DNA from: a virus | IMG/VR virus record: IMGVR_UViG_3300045988_079349 | Length of the DNA: 64,000 nt | Strand: one strand, 5' to 3' | Shown here: piece after piece, positions 24,132 through 57,225 of the stretch | Layout of the letters: every line of letters begins with the position of its first letter | Numbering within the stretch: position 1 is the stretch's first letter | Made by a program: the position numbers and the translations under genes | The notes under the pieces: generated by a model | What the model was told of the DNA's origin: nothing | What the model saw: only the letters and a program-made list of their open reading frames with translations | Databases searched by the model: none

Positions 24132-24995
24132 TCAAGATTTAACGAGAAATTTTTCATCCGTTAGCAGCTCTAAGGTTATTGTATCTCTATATTCGTATGG
24201 AATACGATATAAAGGAATATTGTGAGATAGGCAATATTTATTTTTTTCCTAGTCTCTTTGCATTAAAGCGTCTACTTTTTCTTTAGTATAATATCCACTT
24301 ACTTGACCTTCATGCTATGGACCATCGAACTCTACTACATACTTATTGTCTATGTAAAAATCAAATTTACATTTTTGATTTGGATAATCCTGTGGCGTCC
24401 ATTGAGAAATAAAGGGTATATTTGCTTCTTGCAAGATCCGTTTTATTCTAGCTTCTCCTTTTGAGATTATACAACCACAAGACTAGGTATTCCCAGAAGT
24501 TAAATTTTGTCTTTTTACAATCGTGATATTTCCACAGTCGCACTAGCATTTACAACACCAAGTATCATTTTCTTTAAATTGTTCTAACACAATTAAATTT
24601 CCATATCTGCTTCCTATAATAGGATTACGAATCTAATTTTTAAATAAATGTCCACAAGAAAGAGATTTTCCACTCTTTAATGATGGGGCATATACTTCTC
24701 TTTTTACTCCACAAGAACATTCACATAGCCAGTAGCTCTCTTTCTCTGCTTTTGATAATACTGTCCATTCCCCAAATTTCTGTCCTGTTAAATCAACAAA
24801 TTTTTTAGATGGCTCTCTCTTTTTACATCCGCATGAGGTAGTATGCCCACTTCTTAAATTTTCTGCGCGGACGGGGATTATATTACCACAGTCACACTAA
24901 CATTCCCAAATAGTTCTACGACCTTGATTTGGTAATCTACGTAAAGCGGTTAATTTTCCAAACTTTTGACCAGTTAAATCTAATGCTTTTGGCAT
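24132..24995 (-). CDS. Cys-rich triple-repeat protein with C-terminal PD-(D/E)xK-like (DUF559-like) nuclease domain; putative homing endonuclease (6 TAG codons)
   Basis: Verified codon by codon (287 aa, TGA stop); three repeats LTGQKFGxLT...CxCxCGN...L(R/T)SG..SCGC; C-terminus FDFYIDNKYVVEFDGPQH; no ORF in track because of TAG. Confidence 0.55.
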
Positions 24996-25090
24996 AAAAA
25001 TCATCTCCTTTTTATTGTCTACATTATATAAGAAATAAAAGGAGATGATTTAATCATTTTACCCTCTTTTTTTTTAAATTTGTGGGTAAA

Positions 25091-26365
25091 TTACATTTCC
25101 GCAAGAATATCTTCAGAAATATTACTAGAATTTACGCTCTCTGTAGCAATCCCAGAAATAACTTTAAATTCAAAGGTTTTTGACTTGAAAGCAGTAAAGG
25201 TGCGCCGATTTACAATTCGGATAACTACTCCTTCCTTAACATGGGTGCGGCCGATCGGATCCGCAAGATCCTCGAAGTATTTATTGATGCGCTCCTGAAG
25301 ATCCTCAACAGTAGTAAATGTAAAGTTCTCAATTACAGGAACGCGATTAAAACCATGCCAATCGCACCAGGCAGTGATTTCGTCAGGAGTCCACTCTCTC
25401 TCTCCGTTTTCAGAGGTAATGCGATAGATATACATTTTGCTCTGACCGGGTTCACAGCCATAAGAGAAAATAGACCGTTTACCAAACTGCTTTACAAAAG
25501 CCTTGTCATTGACCTTAGTATTATCACCAATAGGCATAATAGTATTCTCTTCATTGGGCCCATAGTAGCCTACTACTTCGTAAAAAACTTCCATACCTGG
25601 CTCAAGGTGAGGTTTTAGAGCTTCATGGTGAGGCATACGGAACTGATCGTTTCCATAGTATCCCTGAGAGTTTTCAGTTACTACGCAACGGCGAGTTCCA
25701 AGAACATAAGCCTGCTTAGTACGCTTCTTCATATGGAAAAGGCGACGGAAGAAACCATTAGGAAGCTCTGCATAAGTATTCATAGAACGCTGAGAGGTGC
25801 CATGCATTTTGAGGGTCATGTTCAGTCTATCGCTTTCACGGAACTTATCAAAGTTATATGCAAGCTGCTCAGTATCAGTGTGCATAGAGAACTCAGGATA
25901 AGTAATCCCCTCAGCTTTGCGTCCTTTGTAAGAAGTTTTTACTCCATAAGTAGAATTGCTCTTTCGCTTAGGAATATACTTACGGCAAAACTCCTTGTCA
26001 TTGATAGTAGTTACTTTATCTCCGTCACTCCAATGCTGGTCACCAAACTTTTCATAGACTCGATCAAGAGCAATGACAATACCAGAAGACTGGTTGCCGC
26101 GGAGCTTAATAGCCCGCACATGGCCGTTATTTTCAAGGTATCCACCCTGAACAGATCCATCCTCATTCTTGCGGAAAAGGCAAAACTCATTGCCAAACCA
26201 ACGCTCAATTTCTCCATCGGTGGGCAGATAGAGCACCAGATCTCCGGTCTTCATGTCAGGGCCTACGATTACGCCCTCACTAAAACAATCCGCCAGATAT
26301 AGCCGATCGGAATTCGGATCTTTCCGCACGTTCCAAATCTTAGTCACCAGACCAAAATAAGCCAT
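25091..26365 (-). CDS. ATP-dependent RNA ligase (Rnl2-type nucleotidyltransferase with N-terminal OB-like domain)
   Basis: Motif I LKMHGTS (KxHGxS), motif IV EGVVIRI, motif V KSKTFEFK; 424 aa, no TAG. Confidence 0.6.
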   Translation of the reverse strand: MAYFGLVTKIWNVRKDPNSDRLYLADCFSEGVIVGPDMKTGDLVLYLPTDGEIERWFGNEFCLFRKNEDGSVQGGYLENNGHVRAIKLRGNQSSGIVIALDRVYEKFGDQHWSDGDKVTTINDKEFCRKYIPKRKSNSTYGVKTSYKGRKAEGITYPEFSMHTDTEQLAYNFDKFRESDRLNMTLKMHGTSQRSMNTYAELPNGFFRRLFHMKKRTKQAYVLGTRRCVVTENSQGYYGNDQFRMPHHEALKPHLEPGMEVFYEVVGYYGPNEENTIMPIGDNTKVNDKAFVKQFGKRSIFSYGCEPGQSKMYIYRITSENGEREWTPDEITAWCDWHGFNRVPVIENFTFTTVEDLQERINKYFEDLADPIGRTHVKEGVVIRIVNRRTFTAFKSKTFEFKVISGIATESVNSSNISEDILAEM

Positions 26366-26381
26366 CTTTCATGCCTCCTCA

Positions 26382-26669
26382 TTACATAAAAATCTTAAAT
26401 ATATCTGAATTAATTAGTCGAGAAAGAGGTACAAAAGCTATACCTGTATCTTCCTTTTGCTTAGCATCTACATCTTCTGGAGTTCGATCAGGGATAATTC
26501 CAATAAGGAAATCACTATCCATTTTGATAACATACTTGATTGTTCCTGCCAAGAGCAAGCCATCATATGAACCGAATGTGACCAGTTTATTCAGGATACC
26601 TTCATCTATCATAAAAGTATCCATATCTCCGTAATAACCACCCATGTTATCGTACTCCTTTCTTACCAT
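26382..26669 (-). CDS. hypothetical protein
   Basis: 95 aa ORF. Confidence 0.45.
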   Translation of the reverse strand: MVRKEYDNMGGYYGDMDTFMIDEGILNKLVTFGSYDGLLLAGTIKYVIKMDSDFLIGIIPDRTPEDVDAKQKEDTGIAFVPLSRLINSDIFKIFM

Positions 26670-55153: not shown

Positions 55154-55218
55154 ATATAAAAGTGAGTATAAAGCCCTCACTTGCGGCTTATAAGTTCTGC
55201 TGCAACAGAACAACTCAC

Positions 55219-55253
55219 ATAAATATTATACAATATTTTTTATTGTTTTTCAA
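55219..55253 (-). promoter_or_regulatory. sigma70-type tRNA promoter copy 3
   Basis: TTGAAA-17-TATAAT. Confidence 0.5.
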
Positions 55254-56130
55254 CTTTCTTAAAAATCCAGCCTTTGGTATCTGGATTACCTTTACCGGTC
55301 TCCATGGCCGCGTAAATAACATCAAGAGCATGAAGAACCTGGGCCGCAGTTTTAAATCTGCCCACATGAACGAACCCTTTTACTTCATAAATCTCTTTAA
55401 AGGGAATTTCACGCTCACCCTTAATCGCCACTCCCGCAATCTTATACTTATCGTCATCAATAGCAGGACAATTCCTAATCGCTTCATTTCTGCGGGAACG
55501 CGGCTGTTTCGCCGTCAGTCTGCGATTCATCAGCTCTTCCGGGCTTGCAGGATTAGCCTTGCTTTTACCATAAGACATCTTGACCTTAGGTACTTTTACC
55601 GGCTCAATCCCATCAGGAAGAGTGTATCCATCAATATTTTCCCAAACGTATTTCAACATCCAGGCATCTTCTAAAGCATTATGATTCTGAATTGGATCCT
55701 CAGAAGAAAGTTTCATGGTCAGATACGCAGACCTAAGACCAATCGCATCCCTGCGAAAATGAGACGCCACCCTTTTGTCAACATTTTCACATCTATTGTG
55801 AATGTATTGCAGAGTAGTAAGAGCTTTCATATCAGTCGTAAAGCCCATAGAAGCTCTAAGAAAACCCCTATCACTCTTGCCGTAGTGATAGAAAGTATTT
55901 TCTTCATCAAGAAAGGAAAGGAACTCTCTAACTCCTAACATTGCTTCTTCAAGACTAGGAGCCTGGTCTGCATCTTCCTGAGAAATTCCTGTCAAAACCT
56001 TTATATTATGGTCAAGTTTCGTATGCGGACGAATGAGACTATAAAATGTATCTCCATTCTCTGTTACCATACCAATAGAAATTGCTTCATTGGTGATGCA
56101 ATTAGCTTCCAGGTCGAGATAAATCTTCAA
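55240..56130 (-). CDS. DEDDh 3-prime to 5-prime exonuclease (DnaQ/RNase T-like)
   Basis: YLDLEAN (Exo I) and HNALEDA (Exo III) motifs. Confidence 0.65.
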   Translation of the reverse strand: MKIYLDLEANCITNEAISIGMVTENGDTFYSLIRPHTKLDHNIKVLTGISQEDADQAPSLEEAMLGVREFLSFLDEENTFYHYGKSDRGFLRASMGFTTDMKALTTLQYIHNRCENVDKRVASHFRRDAIGLRSAYLTMKLSSEDPIQNHNALEDAWMLKYVWENIDGYTLPDGIEPVKVPKVKMSYGKSKANPASPEELMNRRLTAKQPRSRRNEAIRNCPAIDDDKYKIAGVAIKGEREIPFKEIYEVKGFVHVGRFKTAAQVLHALDVIYAAMETGKGNPDTKGWIFKKVEKQ

Positions 56131-56277
56131 ACTCAGAACTTCCTTTCCTTAACTTTCTACATATATTATATAATAATTTTTTTTAATTTTCAAGAGAGGC
56201 GTAAAATCTAAAGTCTTTTCTTTACGCCTCTCTTTAGTGAGGGAAGTGTACTATTATTAAACTTTATACTGAATAAT

Positions 56278-57225
56278 TTAATTACCCATACCCAAAAATC
56301 TTTCAATAATTTCTTGAATTTTTTCGTAATCTGTATAGGCAATTCTTAACAAAGGTATATTATGCTCCTTAGCGTACTCAGTTTTTAGAGAATCTCTTTT
56401 TAAGTTATCCTCACTATACCACTAACTACTTGTATCAAAATGTTGCCTACCGTCATATTCAATTAACCCTATAAGTCTTTCATTTTTAAAAATAGCAAAA
56501 TCATATCTTAAATAAGATTTATCTTTTAAATCTTTAAATTTATATTCTCTTATAAAAGGTACATCATACTAAGTTAAAATTTCTGCTATCTTAGCCTCTC
56601 CACGAGAATTTCCAATACATCCACAACTCTACGTATCATGATTCATTAGAGCACTACGGGATACTGTCTTTATATTGCCACAGTCACATTTACAAATCCA
56701 ATATCTGTGATCATCTTCTGATCGTTTTAGAGCAGTTAATCTACCAAAACGCTATTCAGCAAGATCTCCTTGAGTTAAGCGTGTTTCAACTCCTATAGGC
56801 TAAACTATTTCTTTCATAATCTAGCCTGATATTTCTTTTTGTAAACATCCACAAGATTTTTTAGCTCCGTTATTTAACTCTGCGGTTTTTGCATAGGTTA
56901 TATTTCCACAATCACACTAGCATTTCCAAAATACAGCAGTCCCAGTATGCGTTTGTTTCCACAAGTCTGTATATTCCTAGTCATAACCTAATACAGTTAA
57001 TCTTCCAAATTTTTGTCCAGTTAAATCTTTCCTGTATAAAGGCCTAGAACATTTTGGACAAGAAGTTTTTGCTCCACTTGTCAACTAATTTGTTATAGTT
57101 ATAACTTCATTTCCGCAGTCGCATTTACAAAGCCACTATGCTTTATTAGCTTTAGTGTTCTCTACTCTTTTAATAACCAACAATTTTCCAAAACGCTATC
57201 CCGTTAAATCTTTTAATGGCGCCAT
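56278..57225 (-). CDS. Cys-rich triple-repeat protein with C-terminal PD-(D/E)xK-like nuclease domain, paralogue of 24132..24995 (11 TAG codons)
   Basis: Verified codon by codon (315 aa, TAA stop); repeats LTGQRFGKL...CKCDCGN...SCGC x3; C-terminus IEYDGRQHF. Confidence 0.6.

Follow-up and report, generated by a model that had tools for sequence, protein, structure and literature searches.

The stretch of DNA analyzed here, in the following called the window, comprises 64,000 nucleotides (nt) of the IMG/VR virus record IMGVR_UViG_3300045988_079349 and belongs to an uncultured phage of roughly 130 kb. It carries two genes, A (24132..24995) and B (56278..57225), both on the minus strand, as are nearly all genes of the window, and both very probably free-standing homing-endonuclease genes (HEGs). 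Gene A consists of 287 codons with six in-frame TAG codons and a TGA stop, gene B of 315 codons with 11 in-frame TAG codons and a TAA stop; not a single TAA or TGA interrupts either frame. Translation of gene A would start from the ATG at 24995, with the Shine-Dalgarno (SD) sequence AAAGGAG 11 nt upstream, and the same SD sequence is located 8 nt upstream of the ATG of gene B. A first-pass annotation made from the letters alone had placed both genes at exactly these coordinates and had reported that no open reading frame (ORF) was listed at either locus. This is indeed the case, since the standard code yields no minus-strand ORF of at least 60 amino acids at locus A or locus B. Gene callers using the standard code miss both genes entirely. 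When positions 20000-30000 of the window were compared with cultured phages by megablast no match was obtained, and for a core gene of this phage the closest relatives in culture reach an identity of only ~35%.

The phage decodes TAG as glutamine by means of its own tRNA with the anticodon CTA. This suppressor tRNA (36133..36207, minus strand), which would decode the in-frame TAG codons, is part of an array of 30 tRNAs within the window and has five acceptor-stem pairs and G73 in common with the phage tRNA-Gln(UUG). Acceptor-stem pairs and G73 serve as identity elements for charging with glutamine. Within the two genes, TAG in one paralogue (written q) corresponds to glutamine in the other, e.g. 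in LTGqRFG/LTGQKFG and EFDGPqH/EYDGRQH. In an alignment of 51 sequences, 8 of the 17 TAG codons fall in columns in which glutamine is more frequent than any other residue, its background frequency being 5%, and the TAG position A227 is occupied by glutamine in 48 of 49 homologues. Furthermore, TAG199 of gene B is replaced by CAG in the copies found in two related genomes (L012 and L010), and the database protein P0001 is identical to the TAG=Gln translation of gene B except for one residue.

The proteins encoded by A and B are 36% identical over about 300 amino acids (BLASTP E 4e-51), bearing out the distant paralogy that had been proposed for them. With a family profile run against the six-frame TAG=Gln translation of the whole window only these two loci were detected (E 4e-127 and 8e-88). 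Each protein begins with three tandem cysteine-rich repeats, as had also been claimed; a regular-expression search for C.C.CG...C.(C/H) returned exactly three modules in A and three in B. In A (24471..24980, minus strand) they span amino acids 6-57 (24825-24980), 68-116 (24648-24794) and 126-175 (24471-24620), the second being degenerate (SCGH) and the third devoid of the LTGQ motif. In B (56617..57210, minus strand) they span amino acids 6-59 (57049-57210), 67-127 (56845-57027) and 154-203 (56617-56766); here the first module ends with SCPKC and amino acids 127-151 between modules 2 and 3 form a helical linker in an AlphaFold2 (AF2) model. The consensus of the ~55 amino acid module is LTGQxFGxLT...WxCxCxCGN...SCGC. 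No Pfam model covers this repeat, no solved relative was found, and a literature search for the motif retrieved no paper. Structural comparison gave weak matches to SH3/Tudor-like folds and none to zinc-ribbon folds. Judging from the model, the modules are predicted to be small, cysteine-stapled beta-barrels, three per protein, which would bind zinc and read DNA sequence.

The C-terminal part of both proteins is a Vsr-like domain of the PD-(D/E)xK type. In B it is encoded by 56281..56616 (minus strand) and identified by Pfam DUF2726 (PF10881; 26.3 bits for the full length and 29.4 bits for the domain at a cut-off of 24.7), by structural matches of the AF2 model of the TAG=Gln translation to a Vsr-like fold (predicted local distance difference test, pLDDT, 92.4) and by conserved residues. 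The corresponding domain of A (24135..24470, minus strand; KFDF ... VEFDGPqH ... RDqEK) is assigned its fold from the model of paralogue B. DUF2726 matches 14 of 18 C-terminal domains of the family. The first-pass annotation had staked its reading on a nuclease fold in this EYDG.QH-containing region, and that reading stands because such a fold was found. Among 50 sequences D242, E256, D278 and K281 of B never vary, and conservation reaches at least 90% for D258, Q261 and H262; the active-site-equivalent residues are kept in both A and B. The published active site of the homing endonuclease I-Bth0305I consists of D196, N208, H213 and D222 (PMC3239194). An hhalign alignment to this enzyme (gp29 of NC_009760) covers the whole domain and pairs D242 with D196, E256 with E206, D258 with N208, D278 with D222 and K281 with K225, while H262 is matched to H213 by position only, as hhalign has a gap there. 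The composite motif of I-Bth0305I (D196, N208, H213, D222) and Vsr (D51, H64, H69, D97) can accordingly be traced in the domain. Vsr, DUF559 and DUF2726 have been grouped together with the structures 1cw0, 3hrl and 3r3p (Steczkiewicz et al. 2012, PMC3424549). The domain of A and B is thus predicted to work like an EDxHD/Vsr nuclease and by sequence forms a different, DUF2726-like branch.

The protein families PHROG 374, 559, 9084 and 7140, to which A and B belong, are labelled as HNH, homing or intron-encoded nucleases, and several GenBank records carry the name HNH endonuclease, as do PHROG 374 and 559. For A and B this label is wrong, as no HNH match was obtained with Pfam and the catalytic domain is Vsr-like instead; the label probably stems from family members in which the cysteine-rich module is fused to a true HNH domain. 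Likewise, Pfam returned no NUMOD or helix-turn-helix (HTH) match for A or B, the N-terminal region being made up of the three modules, and NCBIfam returned nothing.

That both genes are free-standing homing endonucleases, as the first-pass annotation had suspected, is supported by their presence and absence in close relatives, by short co-conversion of the flanks and, for B, by a cassette that is more conserved than its surroundings; it is this evidence of mobility from the relatives on which the designation rests. Cassette B (56304..57327, minus strand, ~1.0 kb) shares 95-100% identity with its counterpart in L012, against 71-87% for the flanks, and the gene is present in L010 and L012 and absent from L011, L013, L014 and L016. 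L011 and L012 were recovered from the same metagenome, are collinear and share 98.3-99.5% identity, interrupted only by two insertions in L012, one of 621 bp and one of 1011 bp. The latter is the B cassette, which takes the place of 11 bp in L011. L012 agrees with L011 at 100% until the last ~8 codons of the small gene upstream of B (57302-57610) and from there on carries the allele of the window, by which EELKAKLGITD* is changed to EELKRKLNII*. These ~8 codons travel with the cassette and have been co-converted. In 100-bp bins, the identity between the window and L012 is 71-87% in the next upstream gene (57610-58914) and 51-77% across the small gene, leaps to 95-100% at about 57327, stays there until 56304 and then returns to ~80%.

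The gene B copies of L012 and L010 differ by one nucleotide in 948 although their backbones are different, that of L010 being 99% window-like. Compared to these copies, gene B of the window shows 25 nucleotide differences, 18 synonymous and 7 non-synonymous, corresponding to a ratio of non-synonymous to synonymous polymorphism (pN/pS) of 0.10. Gene B is under purifying selection. At the protein level the true identity is about 97.8%; the 94% reported by tblastn arose because TAG was read as a stop in the scoring. Taken at the level of sequence, this is the signature of a functional cassette that would have been transferred recently and repeatedly. As one metagenome contains near-identical genomes that either have or lack the cassette, together with a plausible donor type, the locus offers an unusually clean natural snapshot of HEG transfer.

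Locus A lies between an RNA-ligase gene (25091-26365) and a cluster for the salvage of nicotinamide adenine dinucleotide (a nicotinamidase-like gene, phosphoribosyl pyrophosphate synthetase and NAMPT). Cassette A (24143..25157, minus strand, 1015 bp) is found in the window and in a 99% identical relative, L001, which contains an identical copy of gene A, the sole other one. Five relatives of 88-89% identity (L002-L006) lack the gene and have 223 bp in place of the cassette, which comprise the end of the RNA-ligase gene and an ORF for a hydrophobic protein of ~50 amino acids. Homology to these genomes breaks off at window position 25158, 67 nt short of the stop codon of the ligase gene, and restarts 10 nt before the stop codon of A (24142). 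The cassette supplies a substitute 3' end for the ligase gene, whose last ~22 codons differ from those of the gene-less relatives.

According to the first-pass annotation, a self-propagating HEG would explain the two copies. This explanation is contradicted by the 36% identity, by unrelated sites and by presence/absence patterns that differ between A and B. A and B are not recent duplicates, because they are just 36% identical while relatives of B elsewhere, at 55-60% identity, are closer to it than A is. The comparison of insertion sites suggested in the same annotation was carried out for the gene-less sites, both junctions and the 5' untranslated regions, and the similarity between A and B stayed within that of shuffled controls (best p ~0.04, uncorrected). 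One copy spawning the other inside this genome is thus not supported, and the best reading is that of two independent acquisitions of anciently diverged family members with different specificities.

Each gene had also been described as being followed by a terminator hairpin. The hairpins are real, and that of A (24095..24133, minus strand) is a canonical intrinsic terminator with a 15-bp stem (24101-24133) followed by U6 (dG -15.7 kcal/mol, z -4.7). The hairpin 3' of B (56192..56234, minus strand; stem of 14-15 bp, z -4.8) is not canonical, because it has no U tract. A simple terminator scan picked up neither of the two. Both downstream hairpins, with compensatory changes in the stems, occur in relatives lacking A or B; they are thus features of the phage backbone and not of the cassettes, and their role as parts of mobile elements is ruled out. 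A third hairpin is located inside cassette A (24998..25051, minus strand), where AAAUCAUCUCCUUU pairs with the SD region AAAGGAGAUGAUUU of gene A (dG -21.6, z -4.6); its loop contains a TATAAT-like hexamer. It may sequester the ribosome-binding site (RBS) of gene A in read-through transcripts. Upstream of B no significant RBS-sequestering structure was found (z -0.9).

The first-pass annotation had further called A and B the most TAG-dense genes in the window. This is approximately right, but among credible genes B ranks only second, with TAG making up 3.49% of its codons, and A about fifth with 2.07%. Together they contain 17 of the 78 in-frame TAG codons of the window in 3.8% of its codons, while 42 of the 63 window ORFs contain none. 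The top rank is held by ORF 3891-4802 (3.63%), with a GIY-YIG-like C-terminus; an endolysin-like gene (12010-13344) and a GIY-YIG ORF (49089-50000) also rank ahead of A. The two Vsr-like genes thus share the top five places among credible genes with two GIY-YIG-containing ORFs and one endolysin-like gene. In ORF 3891-4802 (minus strand) a long N-terminal region, coiled-coil-like and membrane-anchored, is fused to the GIY-YIG motif, whereas ORF 49089-50000 (minus strand) sits within the tRNA array; the respective motifs are GIYRITDLTTGKSYIGQS and GIYKIENLTDGKVYVGqS. The endolysin-like gene (minus strand) has 10 in-frame TAG codons (2.25%), in agreement with the reported preferential recoding of lysis genes.

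Borges et al. found a group I intron endonuclease to be preferentially recoded in TGA-recoded phages, reported preferential recoding of lysis genes as well and proposed that in-frame stops postpone translation of the endonuclease to late infection, until the suppressor is available (bioRxiv 10.1101/2021.08.26.457843). The same delay logic may be extended to the TAG-dense genes of this phage, A, B and the two GIY-YIG ORFs, with the differences that here TAG is recoded, that A and B are free-standing and that their nuclease belongs to another family. A delayed, suppressor-dependent translation of A and B is plausible by analogy, an idea already in the literature, and the TAG-dense selfish nucleases of this phage fit the published notion that stop-codon recoding times their expression. 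As an alternative source of the high TAG density, the cassettes may be foreign and derive from heavier TAG users.

Taken together, we regard it as highly probable that A and B are independently acquired, anciently diverged free-standing HEGs of a phage reading TAG as glutamine, each composed of a cysteine-rich module array and a Vsr-like nuclease and homing into alleles without the gene. During co-infection, the enzyme would bind the gene-less allele in the genome of a related phage and cut it at the intergenic junction or close by, and recombinational repair off the gene-bearing genome would then copy the ~1-kb cassette, along with a few 3' codons of the upstream gene, into the cut genome. 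Translation would be limited to the time when active suppressor tRNA is present and, for A, additionally by the RBS-sequestering hairpin.

Several observations weigh against this interpretation. The last 7 codons of B (FLGMGN*) occur as non-coding sequence in gene-less genomes, and the last ~3 codons of A are likewise part of a sequence also found in genomes without the gene. Because these terminal codons exist there, the polymorphism could also reflect deletion, and the empty sites could have been left behind by loss of the gene instead of being naive targets. Co-conversion extends over very short tracts, and what appears as an insertion at locus A is the replacement of a small ORF. The promoter-like motif in the hairpin loop of A is not enriched in the window, and TTCTTATATAWT, considered as a motif shared by the leaders, gave 7 matches compared to 3.8 expected, which is not significant. 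As to the enzyme, the DUF2726 score of A itself is 11.7 bits and thus below the cut-off of 24.7, the sequence similarity to I-Bth0305I is not significant (hhalign E 0.022, probability 2%), and neither the protein nor its full-length or C-terminal profile, when run against PDB sequences (phmmer/hmmsearch, HMMER), recovered 3r3p or any other meaningful match. None of the family members bearing the cysteine-rich module is known to cleave DNA or to have a defined target site.

Among the other explanations, the strongest competitor, albeit an unlikely one, is that A and B are domesticated or weaponised nucleases which cut the DNA of competing phages or of the host (marker exclusion, interference competition or nucleotide scavenging), their patchy distribution reflecting the flux of accessory genes at plastic loci. 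The variability of locus A, where different relatives contain different small membrane-protein ORFs, would suit this explanation, as would the short co-conversion tracts, a pN/pS of 0.10, which befits a gene useful to the phage, and the many nuclease-free module arrays of the family, which imply that the module has uses other than homing. Active transfer, on the other hand, predicts what is seen for cassette B, namely sharp ends and a single difference in 948 nt between two backbones. Also arguing for homing are the pair of L011 and L012, which in one sample differ by the cassettes, and the occurrence of the same nuclease domain in an intron ORF. None of the PADLOC defence models matched, and exclusion and homing can in any case coexist in phage HEGs.

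It appears considerably less probable still that the proteins are sequence-specific DNA-binding regulators with a nuclease-like domain that is dead or serves dimerisation only. Arrays of 4-9 modules that lack a nuclease are frequent among family members, and the Tudor/SH3-like folds of the module are used by many nucleic-acid-binding proteins; yet all equivalents of the Vsr/I-Bth0305I active site are conserved in A, B and 50 homologues, and a regulatory role would leave the signatures of mobility unexplained. Finally, the lack of any ORF at locus A or B under the standard code might suggest pseudogenes or non-coding DNA, in which TAG would really mean stop and the similarity would be left over from decay. 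This is effectively refuted by the absence of TAA and TGA across 287 and 315 codons, the excess of synonymous changes (18 compared to 7, pN/pS 0.10), the alignment of TAG with glutamine and its exchange for CAG, the suppressor tRNA in the window, in-frame TAG codons in 21 other window ORFs and the confident model obtained for the TAG=Gln translation (pLDDT 92).

The protein family extends well beyond these two genes. Of 8000 scored candidates 7723 reached E<=1e-3, and 504 records of cultured phages, mainly phages of Firmicutes, carry a homologue. The 120 best matches contain between 2 and 9 modules, and a motif scan detected the Vsr-like tail in 69 of them; several of the tail-less ones that were inspected are arrays without any nuclease. 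Nuclease-free arrays of 4-9 modules are common, and fusions of the module to an HNH domain exist as well (P0070; L012 9716-10336). A modular, nuclease-associated role of the module in DNA binding is a natural inference. Beyond this, we consider it a speculative and rather improbable conjecture that the module is an undescribed, widely used unit of DNA recognition, deployed in arrays of 2-9 with or without a Vsr-like or HNH nuclease, each copy reading a short stretch of DNA as zinc-finger or transcription activator-like effector repeats do. If this were true, one could deduce the target specificity from the order of the modules and re-program it by changing that order, and the natural before/after pairs (L011/L012, and L005 compared to the window) would be candidate targets for decoding a module code. 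Should specificity prove modular, the arrays with their compact nuclease might provide a new sequence-specific DNA-binding scaffold.

Some further features of the window and its relatives were noted. The HNH fusion of L012 is the 621-bp insertion (9716-10336, compared to L011 8701-8777), which encodes one cysteine-rich module and an HNH domain (CSYCG...HHVDP...CANCHRRIE). It is inserted 17-18 nt into tRNA-Asn(GTT), a tRNA that ARAGORN no longer calls in L012, and downstream of the insert lies a substitute sequence resembling a 5' half. At the site of cassette A, the hydrophobic ORF of L002-L006 (~7255-7420, MLGIILGA...FLCVLINAIL) overlaps the ligase stop codon (TAATG), and the more distant relatives L008 and L009 have two other small membrane ORFs there. 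Near locus B, a ~1.1-kb stretch with a DEDD-exonuclease-like gene (55019-56129, gene 55240-56070) is present in the more distant L015, whereas the 82% relatives L011, L012, L014 and L016 have ~420 bp in its place. This marks a further indel hotspot, located where the tRNA array begins.

The 3' arm of the hairpin downstream of B overlaps the -35 element of a strong TTGAAA-17-TATAAT promoter-like site (56165-56193) of the next gene. Elements of ~42 nt with TTGAAA-N17-TATAAT are found on the minus strand at 56150-56193, 55212-55253, 54865-54908, 54608-54649 and 53846-53887; the element is repeated between tRNA genes, is conserved in relatives and is probably a sigma-70-type phage promoter of the tRNA region. 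The phage also encodes a tmRNA (47289-47619, minus strand, Rfam 71.6 bits), directly downstream of which lies a LAGLIDADG-like ORF (46804-47202, minus strand) with the motif LAGIIDGEGS. A tRNA of 117 nt detected by Rfam (44388-44504, minus strand) and not called by ARAGORN may contain an intron or be otherwise unusual.

Compared with known systems, the nuclease of A and B is of the same structural, Vsr-like type as I-Bth0305I, the EDxHD family enzyme encoded by gp29 of Bacillus phage 0305phi8-36 (PDB 3R3P). In contrast to the N-terminal NUMOD2/HTH motifs of I-Bth0305I, A and B possess three cysteine-rich modules predicted to be beta-barrels, and whereas I-Bth0305I resides in a group I intron in recA, A and B are free-standing and intergenic between complete genes; no intron was found by Rfam in the window. 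Vsr itself, a nickase of mismatch repair, consists of one domain, with a zinc site of its own and tryptophans that intercalate, whereas A and B are multi-domain proteins on mobile cassettes. A homologous C-terminal nuclease domain is present in I-MsaI, the ORF of a terL group I intron of Staphylococcus Kayviruses (Team1 ORF086, PMC5618024; BLASTP E 6e-24 overall, strongest in the last ~110 amino acids). I-MsaI, the function of which is putative as is that of A and B, also has a repeated cysteine-containing N-terminal region, but it is intron-borne and its repeat follows the pattern H..CG...x17...C..C instead of LTGQxFG...CxCxCGN...SCGC. The intron status of this locus is taken from PMC5618024; Rfam called no group I intron there (L017), probably because the ORF splits the intron. 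In phage 0305phi8-36, the "homing nuclease" gp194 (L126 14861-15373) ends in a homologue of the C-terminal domain found in A and B (hhalign probability 93%). This protein is free-standing, has an N-terminal CxxC...CxxC ribbon and is nearer to A and B by sequence than I-Bth0305I of the same phage, while gp9 and gp10, described as "Cys-rich, may contain zinc fingers", have a different cysteine pattern and are unrelated.

The closest parallel in lifestyle is provided by the free-standing HEGs of T4-like phages (Seg, Mob and Hef), intergenic cassettes of ~1 kb that occur sporadically among relatives and are transferred with co-conversion of their flanks; their nucleases mostly belong to other classes (GIY-YIG, HNH). 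Translation of T4 homing endonucleases is restrained by RBS-sequestering hairpins, which the hairpin upstream of gene A resembles. To our knowledge, none of the T4-like HEGs is gated by stop-codon recoding. Hef is cited as a free-standing homing endonuclease alongside the description of I-Bth0305I (PMC3239194). The mobile nuclease gene found at the two loci is itself a known kind of element; the cysteine-rich module array is the undescribed part and merits follow-up.

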